NCBI GenBank assembly: GCA_034666405.1
Contig: JAXDLW010000047.1
Coordinates: 79,579-143,578 of the forward strand
Reading direction: 5' to 3'
Source: Chloroflexota bacterium
GTDB taxonomy: Bacteria > Chloroflexota > Dormibacteria > DASZGP01
DNA: 64,000 nucleotides
The notes beneath the pieces are model-generated. The model did not search any database, was not told where the DNA came from, and saw only the letters and a program-made list of their open reading frames with translations. Below, in pieces: positions 5,509 to 31,155 of this stretch (the stretch's first letter is position 1; each line of letters starts with the position of its first letter). Both the position numbers and the translations under genes were made by a program.

Positions 5509-5751
5509 CTAGACGTCAGCTTGCTTCTGGCGCCTGCGGATGAGCGCCGTCGCGGCGCCCTTGAATCGAACGCTGCACTCGCGGCACTTGAACACCATCC
5601 GCGAGCCGATCTCCCCGTAGGGGTCACCGACGCCGTCGCAGGCCGGGCACCTGGCGGTAACCGATGTCATCTGCTCAGGAACCGGGAAGGTGAATATGTC
5701 AATTGGCGGTCGACGTCTCGGCATGTACAGCCTCCCATGCCCACCGCTCAC
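5509..5751 (-). CDS. small zinc-ribbon protein (FmdB-like CxxC...CxxC)
   Basis: CPACDG ...18 aa... CRECS pattern. The true start may be the internal MTSVTARCPAC, near 5670. Confidence 0.35.
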   Translation of the reverse strand: MSGGHGRLYMPRRRPPIDIFTFPVPEQMTSVTARCPACDGVGDPYGEIGSRMVFKCRECSVRFKGAATALIRRRQKQADV

Positions 5752-5932
5752 ACAAATCCCACCGTGTAGCGTGGACCCTATCTCAAATGTTTATACCTCC
5801 AGTATCACATTAAGTGGAGGCCAGGTCAACCAGCACGGGCGCCGATCAAGGGCTTGAGCACGAGGTCGATCGCGCTGGCGTAGCGGGGCAGCCGGTAGTC
5901 GAGGAGGTCATTCGGCGGGAGGAGGTGCTCGC

Positions 5933-7336: not shown

Positions 7337-7746
7337 TGGTTGGCCCTGCGCAGCCGCCTCGCCTGGGCCTGCATCATCCGGTACATGACCCGGGGATACG
7401 ACATCAGCAGGCCGTCCAGCTCGCCCGCGCTGATGACCAGGCAGCGCATCTCGCTCGCGGCGACGATGTCAGCGGTGGGGGGCTCTCCCAGCAGGATCGA
7501 GACCTCACCGAAGAAGTCCCCCCGGGAGAGCGTTGCGCGCACCTCACCGTCGACCACGACGGAGGCCTCTCCGTCCAGGATCAGGTAGAAGCCCGACCCG
7601 GTGAGGCCCTGCCGCAGGACCCGGTCGCCGGCCTGGAAACTGGCCTCGTCCATCAGCTCGACGACGGCCCGGACCTGGGGCGTGGCGAGGTCCGAGAACA
7701 GGCTCAACCCGGCCAGAACGTCCGCAATCTCCTGGTTCCTGTCCAT
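7324..7746 (-). CDS. cyclic nucleotide-binding domain protein
   Basis: cNMP-binding (CAP effector) fold motifs: FQAGDRVLRQGLTGSGFYLILDGEASV ... GDFFGEVSIL ... RCLVISAGEL. 140 aa. Confidence 0.75.
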   Translation of the reverse strand: MDRNQEIADVLAGLSLFSDLATPQVRAVVELMDEASFQAGDRVLRQGLTGSGFYLILDGEASVVVDGEVRATLSRGDFFGEVSILLGEPPTADIVAASEMRCLVISAGELDGLLMSYPRVMYRMMQAQARRLRRANQWRS

Positions 7747-7823
7747 CGCCTCTCAAACTCGGTTGGTGACGCCCCGGCCCCTATAATTCGGGCGCCTTTT
7801 GGCCCTCGGGGCCGAACGGTCCC

Positions 7824-7898
7824 TGGGGAGTGGCCAAATGGTAAGGCAGCTCGCTCTGGACGAGAAGATTGCAGGTTCGACTCCTGCCTCCCCAGCCA
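7824..7898 (+). tRNA. tRNA-Gln (anticodon CTG)
   Basis: Cloverleaf with U1-A72. Acceptor TGGGGAG/CTCCCCA, anticodon stem/loop CTCTGGA (CUG), T-arm GCAGG-TTCGACT-CCTGC, discriminator G, encoded CCA. Closely parallels E. coli tRNA-Gln. Confidence 0.85.
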
Positions 7899-7926
7899 AC
7901 TCCGGCGATCCATGCCGGCCGCGCGG

Positions 7927-8448
7927 TCAGGTCCCGGCGGCTGCCTCGGGCGCGGCCGCTGCCGGAGCTGGGGCGCCGGCGGCGGCAGGTGAAGCGCCGG
8001 CGGGAGCCGCGGCTGCCGCGGCGGCGTCCGCGGCCTTCTTGGCCTGGGCCGCCTTGAGCGCCTCGGCCTTGGCCCGCTCCTGCTTCACGAACTCGATGAA
8101 ACCGGAATAGGGCTGCGGGCCCTGGGGGCTGTTGGCGAACTCGGACCGGTCGGGGGCCAGGTTCTCAACTGCCGGTTCGACCACCTGGCCGCGCTGGTCG
8201 CGGTAGTGCACGTGGCCGTTGGCGCACTCGGCCTTGTAGTGGTCGACCTTGCGGATGCCGATGACCGGGTCGACGTACTCGACCACCTGCCACTTCAGGC
8301 TGCTCCCACAATCGGGGCATTTCCTCTCGAGGCTGTCGGGCACCGGCAGCGGCTTCTTCGCTCCGAACATGCCCAGAGAGAATAAGTGAGCGTCGGCAAT
8401 ATCCTGGCGATGGGATAGTTGTCCATATCGTGGACCACGACCTGCCAT
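7927..8448 (-). CDS. hypothetical protein with a zinc-ribbon (CPDCG...C..H) and Ala-rich C-terminus
   Basis: ORF with CxxC motif. Start uncertain (possibly the internal MFGAKK near 8370, since it overlaps the divergent msrP-like start). Confidence 0.4.
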   Translation of the reverse strand: MAGRGPRYGQLSHRQDIADAHLFSLGMFGAKKPLPVPDSLERKCPDCGSSLKWQVVEYVDPVIGIRKVDHYKAECANGHVHYRDQRGQVVEPAVENLAPDRSEFANSPQGPQPYSGFIEFVKQERAKAEALKAAQAKKAADAAAAAAAPAGASPAAAGAPAPAAAAPEAAAGT

Positions 8449-17146: not shown

Positions 17147-17216
17147 GCGGGGAGTCTAGCTGTCATTTCTTAAGCGATCGTCGGTGTTGCGTAATAGTCC
17201 GGGCGGCGTTGCCGGG

Positions 17217-17255
17217 GCAAAAAATGAGGCCCCACCACCGGAGTGGGGGGGCCTC
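17217..17255 (-). terminator. intrinsic terminator downstream of the minus-strand MerR gene
   Basis: On the minus strand, GAGGCCCCCCCACTCCGGTGGTGGGGCCTC hairpin followed by TTTTTTGCC. Confidence 0.5.
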
Positions 17256-17369
17256 AGAAGAGGGGGGACGCCAGCAGTCTAGCACGCACCTACGGCATAA
17301 GCAATAGGTTCACGCATGTAATCACAGATACTGTGGGTGGGACTATCACTAGGCCGCTCGGCCCAGTGG

Positions 17370-17699
17370 CTACATCCGGATTTCGGTGACGTCGATCTCG
17401 AGCAGGTCAGGGGGCGGGGTGACGCCCGCTTCGCGCAGCTGGATCATCAGGTTGAGGATGTGCTTGGCGCCGGCCAGGTTGACCCCGTGCTGGCGCGTGA
17501 GCCGCTGGATGGTGCGCAGTTTGATCACGTCCCGCTGCGAGAACCGCCTCCGGTTGGTGGGGGTCCGGGCGGGGGTGACAAGGCCCAGACTCTCGTACAT
17601 CATCAGGGTGCGCGGGTGGGTCGCGAGGATCTCTGAGGCCACACTGATGGTGTAGATGGGCTTGTCCAGCCCAATGTTCGAACCAGCGCTCACTGCCAT
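17370..17699 (-). CDS. MerR family transcriptional regulator, HspR-like
   Basis: HTH IYTISVASEILATHPRTLMMYESLGLVTPARTPTNRRRFSQRDVIKLRTIQRLTRQHGVNLAGAKHIL matches the HspR/MerR pattern. Confidence 0.8.
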   Translation of the reverse strand: MAVSAGSNIGLDKPIYTISVASEILATHPRTLMMYESLGLVTPARTPTNRRRFSQRDVIKLRTIQRLTRQHGVNLAGAKHILNLMIQLREAGVTPPPDLLEIDVTEIRM

Positions 17700-17864
17700 A
17701 CCGAATGGTGTCCCCCGGAGTTTTGGCCTAGTCTAGCCCGGCCCGGGGGAATTTGCGATAGTCCGTCTCCCCTGAGATGGTATAAAGATGGGGCGCGGAA
17801 AGCGAAAACTTGATAGCGTCTTGTCCATACTTTCGCCCCAGGCGGGCTGAGGAGGTTCTCGGGA

Positions 17865-18254
17865 GTGTCGATGGAAGCGGACGAGGAGGTCAGAGTCCTC
17901 TTCATCGAAGATGACGCGGCCGTGGCCGAGATGTACCGGCTCAAGCTGGAGCTGGACGGCTACACCGTCACCATCGCCCCGGACGGCGAGCAGGGCCTGA
18001 AGCTGGCCAAGGACGGGCCGCCGGACATCGTGTTCCTGGATATCCGCCTGCCCAAGATGGACGGGTTCTCGGTCCTCGAGTCGCTCCGGGCCGACGAGAC
18101 CCTCAAGCACATCCCGGTGATCATCCTCTCCAACTACGGGGAGGCCGAACTGGTGGAGCGCGGGCTCAAGCTCGGCGCCCTGGACTACCTGATCAAGGCC
18201 GAGACGACTCCGTCAACGCTTTCCCGCGGCGTCGGGAAGTGGATCAAGGAGTGA
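17865..18254 (+). CDS. single-domain response regulator (CheY-like receiver)
   Basis: VLFIEDD...DIVFLDIRLPKMDG...VIILSNYGE...LGALDYLIK: the phospho-acceptor Asp and conserved Lys are present. No output domain. Confidence 0.85.
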   Translation: MSMEADEEVRVLFIEDDAAVAEMYRLKLELDGYTVTIAPDGEQGLKLAKDGPPDIVFLDIRLPKMDGFSVLESLRADETLKHIPVIILSNYGEAELVERGLKLGALDYLIKAETTPSTLSRGVGKWIKE

Positions 18255-18595
18255 TTGGAAACGCCTCATTGAGCGAATCCGGCACCTTCGACCTCGACAA
18301 GGCCGTATACACCATCAGCGTCGCGTCGGAAATCCTCGAGACGCACCCGCGCACGCTCATGATGTACGAGGAGCTCGGCCTGGTCACCCCGCACCGCACC
18401 AGCACCAACCGCCGGCGCTACTCCCAGCGTGACATCCGCCGCCTCCAGGTGATCCAGCACCTGACTCGCGAGCGCGGCGTGAACCTGGCCGGGGTGCGCC
18501 ACATCCTCTCCCTGCTGGAGGTCCTGCACAAGAACGGAATCGCCCCGCACCAGGAGCTCCGGCAGGCCTACCAGATGTACAGCGAGATCATCTAG
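18239..18595 (+). CDS. MerR family transcriptional regulator, HspR-like (paralog of 17370..17699)
   Basis: VYTISVASEILETHPRTLMMYEELGLVTPHRTSTNRRRYSQRDIRRLQVIQHLTRERGVNLAGVRHIL is nearly identical to the upstream inverted copy. Confidence 0.8.
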   Translation: MDQGVIGNASLSESGTFDLDKAVYTISVASEILETHPRTLMMYEELGLVTPHRTSTNRRRYSQRDIRRLQVIQHLTRERGVNLAGVRHILSLLEVLHKNGIAPHQELRQAYQMYSEII

Positions 18596-18628
18596 AGGAT
18601 CCCCTCGAGCACGACAGGGGGCGGGAAC

Positions 18629-19411
18629 CTGACGGCGATCGCGGCCACACTCCAGGGCTCCGATCCGCAGCGCTGGCTCGTCGCCTTCGACTTCGACGGC
18701 ACCCTGTCACCCATCGCTCCCCGCCCTGAGGACGCCCACCTCGACAGCGCCCTCTCCCCCCTCCTCTCCGAGCTCACCCTGTCAGTGGGTTGGGTGGCTG
18801 TGATCTCCGGGCGGGACCGGGAGTTCCTCAGCGAGCGCCTGGAGTCGACCATGCTGTTGGGCAGCTACGGCGTCGAGTTGCCACCTGAGCTCTCGCCGAC
18901 CGGGTTCCCCGAGGGTTTCCCGGCCGGGGCTGTCCGCGCTCGCCTCGGCGCGGCCCGACAGGACCTCGAAGGGGCCATATCCAGGTTCGCGGGCAGCCGG
19001 CTGGAGGTCAAACCATGGGGCCTCGCCCTCCATTACCGCGGCGCCGGCCCGAGGTTCGATGAGGCCGCGGCGACCTCCCTGGCGGAATCGGTGGCCGCGG
19101 CCCACGGGCTCAAGGTGCAGCGCGGGCGCCTGGTGCTGGAGCTGAAGCCGAGGGAGGCCGTGGACAAGGGCTGGGCAATGCGCCGTCTGGTGGAGGTGCT
19201 GGCCCCCTCGGCGGTGGTCTTCGTGGGCGACGACCTCGGCGACAAGGCCGCCTGGGAGGCGACCCGGGACATCGACCTCCCCGGCCTCGCGGTGGGCATC
19301 GCCTCCCCCGAGTTGCCGTCCGACGCGCTGGCCGCCTGCAACCTGGTCCTGCCGGGCAGGGAGGCACTCGCCCCCTTCATGAAGGCGCTGGTCCAGGCCG
19401 CCAGGGGCTAG
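18629..19411 (+). CDS. otsB: trehalose-6-phosphate phosphatase (HAD family)
   Basis: HAD motif I LVAFDFDGTL lies upstream of the first canonical start (GTG 18785). Motifs ISGRD, KGWA, and VVFVGDDLGD (motif IV) follow. No ATG/GTG/TTG occurs in frame between the upstream stop (18593-95) and motif I, so the 5' end is uncertain (CTG 18629 / ATC 18599). Confidence 0.7.
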   Translation: MTAIAATLQGSDPQRWLVAFDFDGTLSPIAPRPEDAHLDSALSPLLSELTLSVGWVAVISGRDREFLSERLESTMLLGSYGVELPPELSPTGFPEGFPAGAVRARLGAARQDLEGAISRFAGSRLEVKPWGLALHYRGAGPRFDEAAATSLAESVAAAHGLKVQRGRLVLELKPREAVDKGWAMRRLVEVLAPSAVVFVGDDLGDKAAWEATRDIDLPGLAVGIASPELPSDALAACNLVLPGREALAPFMKALVQAARG

Positions 19412-20895
19412 CTGGCGATGTTCGGCAGGATCCGGCGGTTGCGCCGCCGGCCGGTCTCGGTCAGGTCGCGGATGTCCTGGAGCTGGCTCGAGATCCAGCG
19501 GGCAACGTCGTTCTGCCGGACCACCGCGCGGATCCTGGTCATGCGGGCATGGCGCTGGCGGGGCTCCATGGTCAGCGCCGAATAGAGGGCGTCGGCCGTC
19601 GCGTCGATGTCGAAGGGGTTGACCGTGAAGGCCCATTGGCCCAGCTCGCCGTACGAGCCGGTGTTCTCGCTCAGGATGAGGACGCCGTCGCGCTCGTTCA
19701 CCATCATCCCCTCCTTGGCGACCAGGTTCATGCCGTCATAGATGGAGTTGACGAGGAGCACGTCGAACTCCTTGTAGGCGGCCATCGCCCGGTTCATATC
19801 CTCACGCAGCTCGAGGCGCACCGGCTTCCACTTGTCGGTACCATAGCGCTGGTTCAGCTCGCGGGTCACGAGCTTCACGTCCTCGAGGTACTTCCGGTAG
19901 AACGGGACGTCCTGGCGCGACGGCTGCAGGTAGGCCCAGAACTGGACCTCACCGAGCAGCTCGGGGTGGCCCTGGAGCATCTTGTCGTACGCCGCAAAAC
20001 CCCGCAGCAGGTTCTTGCTGGGGTCGCTGCGGTCGACGCGGATGATCAGCTTCTCCGGGCGCCAGCGGCGGATGTGGCGCTGCTCGGTGAGCACATCGCG
20101 GCTCTCGGCCGCCTGCATGAACGCGTCGACGTCGATGCTGACCGGGTAGGCCCGGACCCACACCGTGCGCCCGCCGATGAACACCGTCTGCTCCCGGTAA
20201 TCCACCGAGAGGTGCATGTTCTCCTCGCAGGTCAGCAGGAAGTTGCGGCAGTCCCGGGGCGTCTGGAAGCCGACGATGTCATTACCCAGCAGGCCGTCGA
20301 CGATCGGGTCGCGCATCTTGGCGGGCAGCACCTTCCAGTACTGCGGAGTGGGCCATGGGATGTGGATGAACTGCTGCAGCACGACCCCGGGCAGGCGCTC
20401 GCGCACCATCTTGGCCACGAGGTACAGCTGGTAGTCCTGGATCAGCACCAGCGGCACCTGGTCCTGGGAGCGCCCCTCCTCGCCCACCGGCGGCCGCTTG
20501 GCCGCCTGCACCACGCGGTCGGCGAACATCCGGTTCACCTTCACGTAGCCCTCGCTCCACGCCCGGTCGGTCCCGCGGTCCAGCGTGGGGTTGTGGCTGA
20601 GGTTCCAGAGATAGTGCTGGATGAACCAGAGCAGGGGATTGCTGATCTGGTTGTAGTAGAGGTCGTAGGCCTCCTCATCAGGGGACACGAAGGCAATGCG
20701 GTAATCGCGACCGTCGTCGCCGGTGATGACGACCGGGCTGCGCGGGTGTTTCCTGGCCACCTCGCGGTCGGCGGCGGTGCGGGCGCAGCCCACCCAGATG
20801 GCGTCGGTGCTCGCGGCGAGCGTCGACAGAGCGGAGACCAGGCCGCCCGCGCCGCGGCTGGCGACGTACTTCGAACCCTTCCGCTGGACCTCCAC
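19408..20895 (-). CDS. otsA: alpha,alpha-trehalose-phosphate synthase (GT20)
   Basis: GGLVSAL, WVGCA, and the HDYQL-equivalent IQDYQLYLV motifs. The conserved ...IIAANRAP... segment lies upstream of the first GTG (20895). The ORF is open up to 21003 with no canonical start. Confidence 0.85.
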   Translation of the reverse strand: MEVQRKGSKYVASRGAGGLVSALSTLAASTDAIWVGCARTAADREVARKHPRSPVVITGDDGRDYRIAFVSPDEEAYDLYYNQISNPLLWFIQHYLWNLSHNPTLDRGTDRAWSEGYVKVNRMFADRVVQAAKRPPVGEEGRSQDQVPLVLIQDYQLYLVAKMVRERLPGVVLQQFIHIPWPTPQYWKVLPAKMRDPIVDGLLGNDIVGFQTPRDCRNFLLTCEENMHLSVDYREQTVFIGGRTVWVRAYPVSIDVDAFMQAAESRDVLTEQRHIRRWRPEKLIIRVDRSDPSKNLLRGFAAYDKMLQGHPELLGEVQFWAYLQPSRQDVPFYRKYLEDVKLVTRELNQRYGTDKWKPVRLELREDMNRAMAAYKEFDVLLVNSIYDGMNLVAKEGMMVNERDGVLILSENTGSYGELGQWAFTVNPFDIDATADALYSALTMEPRQRHARMTRIRAVVRQNDVARWISSQLQDIRDLTETGRRRNRRILPNIAS

Positions 20896-21063
20896 CGGGG
20901 CCCGGTTCGCGGCGATGATCGGGTAGAAGCCTTCGAGGAGATGCCGCGCGTATTCCTCTAGCAGATTCAGCCTCCCCTGAACTCGAACGTTATAGCGCGG
21001 ATATCATACCCCGGGAACGTCTCGGGACGTGCCCGGATCGCTGGTGTAGAGTCGCGGAGACCT

Positions 21064-28158: not shown

Positions 28159-29592
28159 CTAGTGGAGGGCGGGTTTGCCCTCCAGCCACAGCGGCAAAGC
28201 ATTCACCAGCTGTTCCGGGCGGGCCTGCGACTTGACGACGTACTCGATCGCCCCGAGCTGCAGCGCGCGCTGGATCAGGGGCGGCTCCATGTAGTTGGAG
28301 AGCACCACCACCGGCGTTGCCTCGGTCTCCGGGTTGGCGCGCAGCGTCTGCAGCACCATCAGCCCGTTCATCTTCGGCATCATGACGTCGAGCAGGATCA
28401 GCGAGGGGAGCAGCGCGGTGGCCATGTCCACGCCCTCGACGCCATCGTGGGCGTTCTCCACCTTGTAGCCCTTCGCCGAGAAGAGGATGTTGTAGAACTT
28501 GGCGATCCGCTCGTCGTCCTCGATGATCAGGATCAGCGGGGGGCCCTCGCGCTCTGAGGCCGGCACGGCGGCCACGGCCCCCGCGGCGGCGGCCTCGACC
28601 ACCGGCGGCTCGGGCACGGCGGGCGGCTCCGGGAGGACCACGGGCTCCTCGACGGGCGCCGCAGGCGGGGAGACGATTGCCGCGAAGGGCGCCGCGAGTG
28701 CCGGCGGGATCGCCGCCGGGGCGGGCTCAGGCTCGGGCTCGGGCTCGGGCTCGGCAGCGGGCGGCTCGGACGTCGCGAAGGGCGCCAGCGCGTCGGCCGG
28801 GGTGGCCGCGGCCTCGATGGGGAGCGCGGGCTCGGGTTCGGGCGGGATGACCACCGGGGGCAGGGGCTCGACCCGCGGGGGCTCCGGGGCGACGGGCGGC
28901 GGCGGTGGCTCGAGCGGCGGCCGGACCACCGGGGCGGCGGCCGGGGCCGGAGCGGCCGGGCTGGAGCTGGTCCAGGGGGACATCGGCGACGCCGGGTACG
29001 AGGCGTCCGGGGCGGGGATCGCCTCTGGCCGCGGCGCCGGTGCGGTGATCGGGGGCAGAACGGGGGGTGGCGCCGGCGTCAACGGCGCGGTCACTGGCGG
29101 CGCCGCTGCCGGGGCAGCGCTGACGGGGGCGGGCGCGGGCGCGACCGGGGCGGGCGGCGGCGGCGCGGCAACGGCGGCGGGCGCGCCGGTCGGGCTTCGG
29201 AACGGCGTCGGCTGCGCGCTGTAGATCTCGCGGGGTCCGTCCGGGGCAGGATCGACGTCGGTGCTCAGGGGCATGGGCGCGGGGGCGATTCGGTCTTCGA
29301 CCTCGTCCTTGCTCCTGCGGCGGCTGCCCAGGCGCGTGGCCAGGATGAGCACGACCAGCAGCACCGCCAGCCCGATCAGGACGAAGTAGAGCGGGTTCGA
29401 GGCAACGGCCGTCGTCGCGGCGGGCGCCGGCGAAGCGGCCGAGGTGGCTCCCGGCGAGGGAGTCACGGCCAGGATGATTCCAGTCACGAGCGACATGTAG
29501 TGGTACATGGTAAACGGCAGACCCTCGTTGCAGACGGCAACCGCCAATTCGCCGCCCGAGCCCCGTTCATATAATGATTGCCGCTGCGTCAC
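28159..29592 (-). CDS. membrane-anchored Pro/Ala/Glu-rich protein with a C-terminal receiver domain
   Basis: N-terminal TM helices, then a long PAPxP / PEPEPEPEP low-complexity linker, then a receiver domain (LILIIEDDE...LILLDVMMPKMNG...VVVLSNY...AIEYVVKS). Confidence 0.65.
   Translation of the reverse strand: MTQRQSLYERGSGGELAVAVCNEGLPFTMYHYMSLVTGIILAVTPSPGATSAASPAPAATTAVASNPLYFVLIGLAVLLVVLILATRLGSRRRSKDEVEDRIAPAPMPLSTDVDPAPDGPREIYSAQPTPFRSPTGAPAAVAAPPPPAPVAPAPAPVSAAPAAAPPVTAPLTPAPPPVLPPITAPAPRPEAIPAPDASYPASPMSPWTSSSPAAPAPAAAPVVRPPLEPPPPPVAPEPPRVEPLPPVVIPPEPEPALPIEAAATPADALAPFATSEPPAAEPEPEPEPEPAPAAIPPALAAPFAAIVSPPAAPVEEPVVLPEPPAVPEPPVVEAAAAGAVAAVPASEREGPPLILIIEDDERIAKFYNILFSAKGYKVENAHDGVEGVDMATALLPSLILLDVMMPKMNGLMVLQTLRANPETEATPVVVLSNYMEPPLIQRALQLGAIEYVVKSQARPEQLVNALPLWLEGKPALH
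28723..28756. repeat. tandem hexanucleotide repeat (GGGCTC)n encoding PEPEPEP
   Basis: gggctcaggctcgggctcgggctcgggctcggc, directly visible in the sequence. Confidence 0.8.
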
Positions 29593-29618
29593 CCGGACGA
29601 CCCGGTGCGCGTCAACGT

Positions 29619-29695
29619 GGCCCGTTCGTCTAGAGGCCTAGGACACCGCCCTCTCAAGGCGGAGATCAGCGGTTCGAATCCGCTACGGGCTACCA
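29619..29695 (+). tRNA. tRNA-Glu (anticodon CTC)
   Basis: Near-identical architecture to E. coli tRNA-Glu (GTCTAGAGGCCTAGGACACCGCC-CTCTCAA-GGCGG). T-arm AGCGG-TTCGAAT-CCGCT. CCA encoded. Confidence 0.85.
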
Positions 29696-29718
29696 AGCCT
29701 CACGACCAGGGGGACAAG

Positions 29719-31155
29719 ACGATGGCGCCGGCCCACGATCTGACCTTCACCCCGGCGGCCGAACTGGTGCGCCGGATGGCCTCCCGGGAGATCTCCCCCG
29801 TGGAGCTCGTCGACGCCTGCCTCGCGAGGATCGAGGCGCTCAACCCGCAGGTCAACGCCTTCATCCTGGTGCTGGCCGACGAGGCGAGGGCCGCCGCCCG
29901 GGACAGTGAGGCGCGGATCGCGAGGAACGAGGCGAGGCCCCTGGAGGGCCTGCCCATCCCCATCAAGGACATCGCCCTGGTGGCCGGCACCCCCGCCACG
30001 CTCGGCTCCCGGATGTCGCCCGACTTCCCAATCCCGTTCGACTCTGAGTCGGTGGCGCGCCTGCGCCGGGCGGGCGCCGTGATCATCGGCAAGACCCACA
30101 TGCCCGAGCTCGGCTCGACGGTGGCAAGCGTCAGCGAGCGCTTCGGCGCCACCCGCAATCCCTGGAATTTGGAGCACTCCCCGGGCGGCTCCAGCAGTGG
30201 CGCCGCGGCCGCTGTCGCCTCCGGGATGGTGCCGGTCGCCCACGGCGCGGACGGTGGCGGGAGCTTGCGCATCCCGGCCTCCTGGACCGGCCTTTTCACA
30301 ATCAAGCCCACGCGCGGACGTGTCAGCGAGGAGCCCCTCGGTGACGTAACCGGCCTGCTGATCCAGGGCTTCATCACGCGGACCGTGATGGACAACGCCC
30401 TGCTGCTCGACCAGGTTCAGGGGTACGCCCGCGGCGACCGCTATTGGTGCTCGCCGCTGGAGCGCCCATTCACCGAGGAGGTCGGGGCCGACCCGGGGAA
30501 ACTGCGGATCGGCTGGACGCTCAAGCCGCCCTACCCCACCCCGGTCGACCCGGCGTGCGCGGCGGCGGTGGAGCGGGCTGTCGCAATCCTCACCGACCTG
30601 GGCCACGACGTCGAGGCGCACGACCCGGACTGGGCTGACGAGGAGGCGGCCGAAATCTTCCTCAACATCTGGCGGGCCCAGTTCGGTTACGCCGTGGATG
30701 CCCTCGCCCGCTTCGGCCTCGACCCCTCACTGCTGGAGCCCCACAGCCACGCACTGTGGGAGCAATCCAAGCAGATCACGGCGTCCGACTACCTCTCCGC
30801 GGTGGGTCGCAGCCACGACATGCTGAAGCGACTGGACGAGAGCTTCCAGAAGTACGACGTGATCCTCTCGCCGACGACCGCCCTCCCGCCGCCAACCGTG
30901 GGATGGCTGTTCGAGGACGCCGCGACCGATCCGCTGTCCCCCCTGATCCCGCGCTCGGCGATGGCGGCGCCCTTCACCGCGCTCTTCAACATCACCGGTC
31001 AACCGGCCGCCAGCTGGCCGCTGGGCTGGACCGTGGACGGCCTCCCGGTGGGCGTGCAGGCCGCCGGCCAGATGGGTGACGAGGCGACCCTCTTCAGGCT
31101 CAGCGCACAGGTCGAGCAGGCCGCGCCCTGGGCGGACAGGCGCCCGGTCCTCTAG
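29719..31155 (+). CDS. amidase-signature family amidase (GatA-like)
   Basis: AS signature GGSSSGAAAAVASGMVPVAHGADGGGSLRIPAS with the Ser-cisSer-Lys triad context. Start at MAPAHDL, 23 nt after the tRNA. Confidence 0.8.
   Translation, partial: TMAPAHDLTFTPAAELVRRMASREISPVELVDACLARIEALNPQVNAFILVLADEARAAARDSEARIARNEARPLEGLPIPIKDIALVAGTPATLGSRMSPDFPIPFDSESVARLRRAGAVIIGKTHMPELGSTVASVSERFGATRNPWNLEHSPGGSSSGAAAAVASGMVPVAHGADGGGSLRIPASWTGLFTIKPTRGRVSEEPLGDVTGLLIQGFITRTVMDNALLLDQVQGYARGDRYWCSPLERPFTEEVGADPGKLRIGWTLKPPYPTPVDPACAAAVERAVAILTDLGHDVEAHDPDWADEEAAEIFLNIWRAQFGYAVDALARFGLDPSLLEPHSHALWEQSKQITASDYLSAVGRSHDMLKRLDESFQKYDVILSPTTALPPPTVGWLFEDAATDPLSPLIPRSAMAAPFTALFNITGQPAASWPLGWTVDGLPVGVQAAGQMGDEATLFRLSAQVEQAAPWADRRPVL

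Follow-up and report, generated by a model that had tools for sequence, protein, structure and literature searches.

A conserved receiver-MerR gene pair and a candidate operator at trehalose-synthesis genes in Candidatus Dormibacterota

In a 64,000-nucleotide stretch of Dormibacterota DNA (part of contig JAXDLW010000047.1; hereafter the window), the gene of a stand-alone response-regulator receiver, here called RR, runs directly into the gene of a minimal MerR-family regulator, M2, and a second gene of the same regulator family, M1, is transcribed divergently from RR. Comparison with related loci revealed that the RR-M2 gene pair is conserved and tightly joined, that M1 and M2 are paralogs of considerable age, and that a 17-bp palindrome, TGAYA-N7-TRTCA, is enriched at one exact spacing upstream of RR-M2 and of genes for trehalose synthesis. 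We propose a Dormibacterota-wide stress module in which M1 and M2 would repress trehalose and stress genes through these palindromes, and in which phosphorylated RR would modulate M2. As a whole this proposal is tentative and falls a little short of an even chance; its parts differ in strength and are graded separately below.

Conservation and coupling of the RR-M2 gene pair

The three open reading frames (ORFs) predicted in the first-pass annotation, 17370..17699 on the minus strand and 17865..18254 and 18239..18595 on the plus strand, were borne out at these coordinates, and so were the families to which they had been assigned. Both outer genes encode MerR-family proteins (PF13411 MerR_1, E 4e-16 for M1 and 9e-20 for M2), and the middle gene encodes a single-domain receiver that matches PF00072 Response_reg alone (E 3e-24). 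The genes of the locus are the following.

17370..17699, minus strand: M1, a 109-aa minimal HspR/GlnR-like MerR-family regulator, monocistronic (PF13411, E 4.4e-16), with a C-terminal tail ...PPDLLEIDVTEIRM of a conserved type
17865..18254, plus strand: RR, a 129-aa stand-alone receiver consisting of a REC domain only (PF00072, E 2.8e-24)
18251..18595, plus strand: M2, a 114-aa minimal HspR/GlnR-like MerR regulator, or 118 aa if read from GTG 18239 (PF13411, E 8.5e-20), with a C-terminal tail ...LRQAYQMYSEII
18596..19411, plus strand: otsB, trehalose-6-phosphate phosphatase (PF02358, E 2.5e-16)
19408..20895, minus strand: otsA, trehalose-6-phosphate synthase, convergent with otsB (PF00982, E 8.8e-112)

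RR scored 85.8 bits against PF00072 (cut-off 30.2), and across 94 sequences each of its residues E15, D16, D17, the phospho-acceptor D59, S89, Y108 and K111 shows conservation of 98% or more; an exact-sequence look-up of RR matched no record. A scan with one genome per species yielded 467 relatives. The best 80 loci were Dormibacterota-type M2 orthologs, and in 77 of these 80 the gene next upstream is an RR gene. At almost every junction, the stop of RR and the start of M2 either overlap by 4 nt (ATGA or GTGA) or are separated by 1-6 nt. Based on the comparison of these junctions across loci, GTG 18251 is favoured as the start of M2, giving a protein of 114 aa and a 4-bp GTGA overlap, and a 114-aa ortholog that is 95% identical to M2 (P0001) agrees with this start; the overlap of 16 bp described previously exists only if M2 starts at GTG 18239. 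Judged from this arrangement, RR and M2 are translationally coupled through the GTGA overlap.

The RR-M2 pair was found in three genomic contexts. Context A is that of the window and comprises 12 loci. Context B, a denser cluster of stress genes, has an M1-type gene standing alone and another RR-MerR pair; a Zn-ribbon gene, PBP1A and two YtxH genes come next, and after these RR-M2, FtsH, a 98-aa MerR gene overlapping otsB, otsA and a 124-aa MerR gene, so that two RR-MerR pairs and three more MerR paralogs are present in total. In context C, RR-M2 lies right behind obg-nadD-rsfS and is followed by glycosyltransferase genes, with no M1 nearby. The second RR-MerR pair has diverged independently and shows the same gene order and tight junction; its MerR paralog has an M1-like tail, and RR-coupled paralogs thus carry either of the two tail types described below. 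The triad of M1, RR and M2, which had been taken as the module, did not hold up as such in relatives: within the 12 window-type loci, M1 is truncated in L008 and was not found in L011 or L012, and the other clades are arranged differently. Gene order accordingly indicates that the conserved unit is RR followed by M2 rather than the triad.

No HisKA or HATPase_c genes were found within 8-10 kb on either side of the pair in four annotated lineages, and a crude regular-expression search for ORFs with an H-box plus an N/G-box returned none in 88 loci or in the window. The kinase that would make this a conventional two-component system is therefore missing near the homologous loci in the four annotated lineages checked, and RR has neither an output domain nor an adjoining cognate kinase. 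The first-pass annotation was likewise correct that histidine kinase, dnaK and clpB are absent among the window ORFs scanned; chaperone genes in general were found neither in these ORFs nor in the annotated relatives. The nearest outgroup is a Chloroflexia family of HspR-like proteins with about 55-60% identity, and in the two loci inspected (L087 and L088) there is no adjacent RR. In both of them the HspR-like gene is followed by a gene for a BrkB/YihY-family membrane protein, and in L087 two YtxH genes also follow, an echo of the YtxH genes beside RR-M2 in context B.

Two observations on individual loci are recorded here. The RR ortholog of L001 (7616-8004 of a 178-kb contig) was matched by tblastn in two frames, 7616-7771 and 7768-8001, with a gene call of only 74 aa, which reflects either a frameshift from an assembly error or a pseudogene. 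Among the loci whose synteny is typical of Dormibacterota, several (for example L010, L027, L052, L058 and L080) were deposited under other names (Solibacter, Terriglobales, Acidoferrum, Eisenbacteria, Nitrosopolaris, Bacillota), which suggests mis-binned or mislabelled metagenome-assembled genomes (MAGs).

Age of the M1/M2 paralogy

M1 and M2 had been described as near-identical copies from a recent duplication. Pairwise alignment gave 62% identity across 98 aa. In the 70-aa core the two are 76% identical as proteins, 69-76% as DNA and 43-61% at third codon positions, and these figures are alike in eight genomes. Across genomes, M1 orthologs and M2 orthologs are each 83-100% identical in this core, and all of the 120 best database matches of M2 (120/120) are nearer to M2 than to M1. 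In nine close relatives, the M1 orthologs show 72-94% identity. The C-terminal tails are conserved per paralog type across deep clades, as ...(D/E)IDV(T/S)x(I/L)x(V/M) in the M1 type and as ...L(R/K)QAYQMYSEI(I/L) in the M2 type. Since orthologs are closer than paralogs, third codon positions have diverged this far and each copy has its own conserved tail, a recent duplication is contradicted; the sequences indicate that the duplication is old and that M1 is an old paralog lost by some relatives. Gene conversion between M1 and M2 was considered and rejected from the comparison of core identities across genomes. M1 and M2 do not differ in the helix and wing residues that would contact DNA, and both proteins should therefore read the same sites.

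Family and fold of M1 and M2

Both proteins belong to the MerR superfamily, with PF13411 scores of 59.2 bits (M1) and 71.1 bits (M2) against a cut-off of 21.6; in the 118-aa form of M2 starting at GTG 18239, the domain spans residues 24-91. The top NCBIfam model for both was HspR (NF047375), with 91.3 and 97.2 bits under a cut-off of 105, and the NCBIfam TnrA model scored 23.0 and 34.5 bits against a cut-off of 140. When the family profile was compared with solved structures, Bacillus subtilis GlnR (4r4e, E 1.5e-13) and TnrA were closest. An AlphaFold2 model of M2 (predicted local distance difference test score 87.5) consists of a winged helix-turn-helix (HTH) followed by helices at 83-98 (16 residues) and 105-115. 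GlnR-DNA and TnrA-DNA complexes took the top ranks in a Foldseek search with this model (template-modelling score 0.83-0.93, normalised to the target; root-mean-square deviation 0.9-2.5 A), and canonical coiled-coil MerR structures deviated by 5-7 A. The long coiled-coil dimerisation helix and the effector-binding region of canonical MerR proteins are missing from the model, in which the C-terminal region is short. At the other end, the 118-aa form has 23 residues before the first HTH helix, including a conserved FDLDKP motif, and in the model residues 1-14 are disordered and residues 22-25 form a strand, with no helix.

A search of 1.84 billion protein cluster representatives returned only 33 clusters below E 1e-30, nearly all of them at least about 65% identical to the Dormibacterota paralogs and a few weaker. 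The ten longest of the 150 best family hits are fusions of the MerR-MerR, MerR-BON or MerR-LON substrate-binding-domain type. Homologs are labelled 'heat shock protein HspR' in their source records, a label that is probably misleading. Taken together, M1 and M2 probably stand at the minimal, partner-regulated end of the MerR superfamily; by sequence they are closest to HspR.

A candidate operator at trehalose-synthesis promoters

The canonical HspR operator, HAIR, was searched as CTTGAGT-N7-ACTCAAG. It is absent from the window, as previously stated, the sole match having 3 mismatches, in line with a chance expectation of 0.94, and no intergenic match with up to 2 mismatches was found across 983 kb of related loci. 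Footprinting of the region upstream of RR, on the other hand, identified GACA-N7-TGTC and CTGAT-N9-ATCAG palindromes, which were generalised to TGAYA-N7-TRTCA. With up to 1 mismatch, this palindrome had 147 matches in 900 kb compared to 13-30 in shuffled sequences, 3-26 matches when the spacer was set to 3-6 or 8-11 instead of 7, and a median of 11 matches for 60 permutations of the half-sites. The sites have the geometry of TnrA/GlnR operators, that is, 17 bp with two half-sites of 5 bp and an exact spacing of 7 bp. They were located as follows.

Upstream of RR-M2, contexts B and C: palindrome sites in 46 loci
Upstream of the operon of the 98-aa MerR gene and otsB: palindrome sites in 30 loci
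Between otsA and the 124-aa MerR gene: palindrome sites in 12 loci
Between otsA and tldD, context A: palindrome sites in 7 loci
About 40 nt before the second RR gene: perfect palindromes in 2 loci (L058, L064)

A weight matrix built from all sites gave exactly two strong matches in the window, 20990-21006 and 5791-5807. These are listed here together with a degenerate site and a conserved element in front of RR.

20990..21006, between otsA and tldD: candidate operator TTATAGCGCGGATATCA, reading TGATA-N7-TATAA on the otsA strand
5791..5807: second high-scoring candidate operator TTATACCTCCAGTATCA, overlapping a TTGACC-N17-GATACT promoter on the minus strand
5509..5724, minus strand: gene, lying downstream of the 5791 site, of a small zinc-ribbon-like protein (CxxC...CxxC, about 71 aa)
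17778..17786, plus strand, between M1 and RR: conserved extended -10-like element TGGTATAAA, from a footprint alignment of 11 close loci
17811..17827, plus strand, between M1 and RR: degenerate operator-like site TGATAGCGTCTTGTCCA

Both otsA (95 nt away) and tldD (58 nt away) have the site at 20990-21006 in their upstream regions, and on the otsA strand the site overlaps a -10-like TATAAC. At the otsA sites of context A, compared in 7 close relatives, the half-sites are invariant (TTATAG...TATCA) and the central bases vary freely, which, as far as the sequences tell, is the footprint expected of a dimeric protein. The ortholog of the 5791 site in L001 is a perfect palindrome, TGATATCTTGAGTATCA, and the zinc-ribbon-like protein encoded downstream has a conserved ortholog in the same locus; this gene may be a member of the regulon. 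In the degenerate site in front of RR, the left half TGATAGCG is conserved and doubles as an extended -10 (TGnTAGCGT), and the right half is poor, with TGTCC at 6-nt spacing. Two other clades have full palindromes at the equivalent position. The conserved element TGGTATAAA probably acts as a promoter element. A shared palindromic operator, which the first-pass annotation had envisaged for the region between M1 and RR and upstream of otsB, thus exists as TGAYA-N7-TRTCA, but it is non-canonical and lies at the otsA promoter, not directly before otsB.

Several further features were noted in the region upstream of RR. Generic scans for inverted repeats and sigma-70 promoters between M1 and RR yielded one non-conserved 8-nt repeat and no promoter call. 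In the window's clade, the RR leader shows a GCGAAA...TTTCGC pairing by eye; an RNA structure in the conserved leader was rejected, RNAalifold giving -1.1 kcal/mol with no covarying pair for 24 context-B sequences. In context-B loci, an invariant purine-rich block, GGGGGGAAAGG, directly adjoins the GTG of the operator half-site GTGACAG on its 5' side; in L043, for example, it is found some 50 nt before RR starts. This block could be the Shine-Dalgarno sequence of a short upstream ORF ending at the RR start codon. Such an ORF starting from that GTG is unconvincing, the variation not being codon-like and the coding evidence weak, and its frequent ending at the RR start is uninformative because two of three frames do so by construction and stops are rare at 69% GC. 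In L036, L040, L050, L052, L057, L059 and L063, one to three tandem hairpin elements of about 36 nt (GAGCCCGCTCCGGCGTGGAAAAGCGGGCGGTTCAAT), which resemble repetitive extragenic palindromic sequences or miniature inverted-repeat transposable elements, are inserted between the operator and the RR ribosome-binding site. An 8-mer, AGTCTAGC, occurs three times in 600 bp around M1 (17153-17160, 17276-17283 and 17731-17738), and in L007 a perfect palindrome located between PBP1A and M1, TGACAGTCTAGCTGTCA, has these bases as its spacer.

Link to otsB and otsA

The otsB reading frame is open from the codon following the M2 stop (TAG), with which it is in frame. The catalytic DFDGT motif lies at 18689-18703 with no ATG, GTG or TTG upstream of it, and the first canonical start, GTG 18785, comes after the nucleophile. 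In L001 and L011, otsB likewise has no upstream canonical start. The frame shared with the M2 stop is found in L001 and L004, the latter with upstream GTG codons, and other relatives use other frames. A non-canonical start (e.g. CTG 18629 behind GGGGGCGGG), read-through or a truncated enzyme are all possible. There is no terminator-like site between M2 and otsB, and otsB is probably co-transcribed with RR-M2. A MerR paralog is found directly before otsB in two clades, with a different paralog in each.

Proposed mechanism and alternative explanations

In the mechanism that we propose, dimers of M2 and of M1 would bind the 17-bp TGAYA-N7-TRTCA sites, a binding that we infer from the identical DNA-reading residues and the placement of the sites. 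The sites overlap -10-like elements of the otsA promoter, of the zinc-ribbon gene promoter and, in degenerate form, of the RR-M2(-otsB) promoter itself, and because of this overlap binding is expected to repress. Repression would thus fall on trehalose-synthesis and stress genes, and on RR-M2(-otsB) clearly in other clades and weakly in the window. An unlinked kinase would phosphorylate RR, which would then contact M2 and alter its dimerisation or DNA binding, and M1 would act on the same operators as an additional input that does not depend on RR. Of this mechanism, the part concerning operator and regulon is likely to be correct. Direct control of M2 by RR is possible, although we lean against it; it is suggested by the near-universal translational coupling, which recurs in the second, diverged RR-MerR pair, by the lack of a sensor domain in M2, and by the closest relatives being partner-controlled (glutamine synthetase and GlnR/TnrA, DnaK and HspR, PhoP and HspR). 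With 114 aa and little beyond the winged HTH, M2 has no room for a ligand domain. In its strictest form, the proposal is a split response regulator with a MerR-type output, in which RR phosphorylated by an orphan kinase would bind an M2-type protein, switch its dimerisation or operator binding and so control trehalose synthesis; we regard this form as rather unlikely. Of the phospho-controlled heat or redox switch proposed in the first-pass annotation, phospho-control remains the leading idea because RR keeps all phospho-acceptor residues and is translationally coupled to M2, but heat and redox are not indicated; the linked genes point to trehalose, desiccation or osmotic stress.

A number of points weigh against the proposed module. 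The palindrome counts are inflated by shared ancestry, the sites representing about eight independent promoter classes, and 16 further matches are a coding coincidence inside the second RR gene (peptide DIPVII). Part of the palindrome signal could be promoter sequence, because the half-sites resemble -10 boxes. Autoregulation is doubtful in the window's clade, since the site at the RR-M2 promoter is only half-conserved there. No REC-MerR fusion is present in the ten longest of the 150 best family representatives, and the tail is no simple RR-binding determinant because RR-coupled paralogs bear either type. Finally, all sequences compared are from MAGs.

The strongest alternative is that RR is co-expressed cargo, acting as a phosphate sink or as a connector elsewhere, with its operon being just one of the M2 regulon's members, and that M2 and M1 sense stress by their own thermolability or through a chaperone such as DnaK. 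HspR-type repressors do work with chaperones and HspR is the best NCBIfam match; also, there is no kinase near the module, REC-MerR fusions were not seen in the representatives just named, and M1 and the Chloroflexia relatives manage without an RR next to them. Such a loose association is at odds with the near-universal gene order and the tight stop/start junction in deep clades, which are typical of proteins needed in fixed stoichiometry, with the second RR-MerR pair and with an M2 that has no sensor domain of its own. We consider cargo an unlikely explanation, to be taken seriously nonetheless.

That M1 and M2 are ordinary HspR heat-shock repressors, whose main targets are dnaK, clpB and groEL elsewhere and whose link to trehalose is incidental, is improbable. 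The source-record labels, the top NCBIfam match (91-97 bits) and the FtsH and YtxH stress genes adjoining the module in the context B clade would fit this explanation. However, both scores are under the equivalog cut-off of 105, neither the window nor the 983 kb of related loci contains the canonical HAIR, none of the loci examined has a linked chaperone gene, and the enriched palindrome is found at the otsA and otsB promoters in two clades.

A partner switch of M1 and M2, in which the two would heterodimerise or compete for the same operators, RR would sequester one of them and the M1:M2 ratio would set the output, is likewise improbable. The two proteins share their DNA-reading residues and differ in tails of which each type is conserved, and the divergent genes share one intergenic region, all of which would fit such a switch; but 3 of 12 close relatives have lost M1 or retain only a truncated copy, and no M1-type gene is near RR-M2 in the rsfS-linked clade, and the M1-M2 pair therefore cannot be essential to the mechanism.

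Lastly, the inverted pair as an assembly artefact or a very recent duplication, for which one might cite the 141-nt, 79% complementary inverted repeat linking the M1 and M2 genes, has practically no probability left, because the same layout recurs in at least 10 independent MAGs, orthologs are closer than paralogs, substitutions at third codon positions are saturated, gene conversion has left no trace, and the repeat is the strongly constrained HTH-wing coding region.

Comparison with known systems

[quoted passage not shown] It acts as a repressor, as M1 and M2 are proposed to do, and is controlled by a protein partner, which in Streptomyces is DnaK. Its operator HAIR (cTTGAGT-N7-ACTCAAg) has the 7-bp spacing and the TGA...TCA core in common with TGAYA-N7-TRTCA. 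In contrast to HspR, M1 and M2 are shorter (109-114 aa) and under the equivalog cut-off, canonical HAIR is missing, and the module has otsA/otsB as linked genes, rather than dnaK, clpB or dnaJ, and is coupled to a gene for a receiver. In Mycobacterium tuberculosis, HspR is an interaction partner of the response regulator PhoP, by which it is recruited (Sevalkar 2019, according to PMC7464140).

TnrA and GlnR, the nitrogen regulators of Bacillus, are the closest solved structures by sequence and fold. They differ from MerR in an extra N-terminal segment, the absence of a coiled coil, a 17-bp TGTNA-N7-TNACA operator and a C-terminal sensor that contacts another protein (Schumacher et al., PMC4335299). 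The extra N-terminus of about 11-20 residues (helix alpha1') is required for dimerisation (PMC4335299), and activity is set by a protein partner at the C-terminal region (PMC9249791; PMC4335299). M1 and M2 share with them the 5-N7-5 geometry of the candidate operator and, in the model, the lack of a long coiled coil, and may also share the extra N-terminal segment. Read by eye from the alignment, R26 of GlnR, which reads G, corresponds to R38 here, and two base-contacting residues differ (R29 and Y30 of GlnR are M41 and M42). The proposed partner here is a receiver, and no gene for glutamine synthetase, the partner of TnrA/GlnR, was found in the neighbourhood in annotated relatives.

RR resembles CheY, DivK, Spo0F and CpdR in being a bare REC domain; its phospho-acceptor site is complete and no kinase is encoded beside it. 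By sequence it is nearest to the REC domains of PleD, RpaA and the OmpR family and not to CheY. To our knowledge, none of the four bare receivers is in an operon with, or controls, a MerR-type DNA-binding protein. The fused-dimer HspR family (NF047377) and the HspR-like fusions described above (MerR-MerR, MerR-BON, MerR-LON) show that the HspR-like unit is evolutionarily modular; unlike in the fused dimer, the two MerR units here are separate, divergent genes and REC is a separate polypeptide.

The first-pass annotation had called the arrangement undescribed, and our literature searches gave no precedent either. Its components are of known kinds, namely a MerR/HspR-like repressor, a stand-alone receiver and otsBA, and it is the arrangement itself that, in the literature searched, appears not to have been described. 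Dry and cold soils harbour Dormibacterota in abundance; these bacteria are uncultured, and we know of no work on their gene regulation; trehalose is a key desiccation protectant. The present analysis provides a candidate regulator-operator pair for trehalose synthesis in this phylum, and in RR-M2 a case of possible control of a MerR-type DNA binder in trans by a bare receiver, comparable to glutamine synthetase acting on GlnR/TnrA or DnaK on HspR. As a bridge between the designs of HAIR and the TnrA box, the operator would support HspR and TnrA/GlnR as one structural class. If the split regulator is real, it represents an undescribed wiring of two-component signalling to transcription that is conserved and duplicated across the uncultured phylum.

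Neighbouring genes and minor observations

The window has a G+C content of 69%, and the nearest homologs of its genes are in Candidatus Dormibacterota MAGs. The gene order around the module is Rrf2, DsrE-like, PBP1A and the leftward M1, then the rightward RR, M2 and otsB, then the convergent otsA, followed by tldD and pmbA. Further along are genes for a superoxide dismutase and for an ABC transporter of glycine betaine. One additional feature was located next to M1.

17230..17248, minus strand: terminator-like hairpin followed by a T-run, 3' of M1

A search against Rfam gave nothing relevant around the module and two tRNAs only across the window. One of these, at 29619-29692 (plus strand), sits within the 5' end of the longest amidase ORF, 29578-31155 (plus strand). 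Because of this overlap, the true start of the amidase gene must be further downstream.

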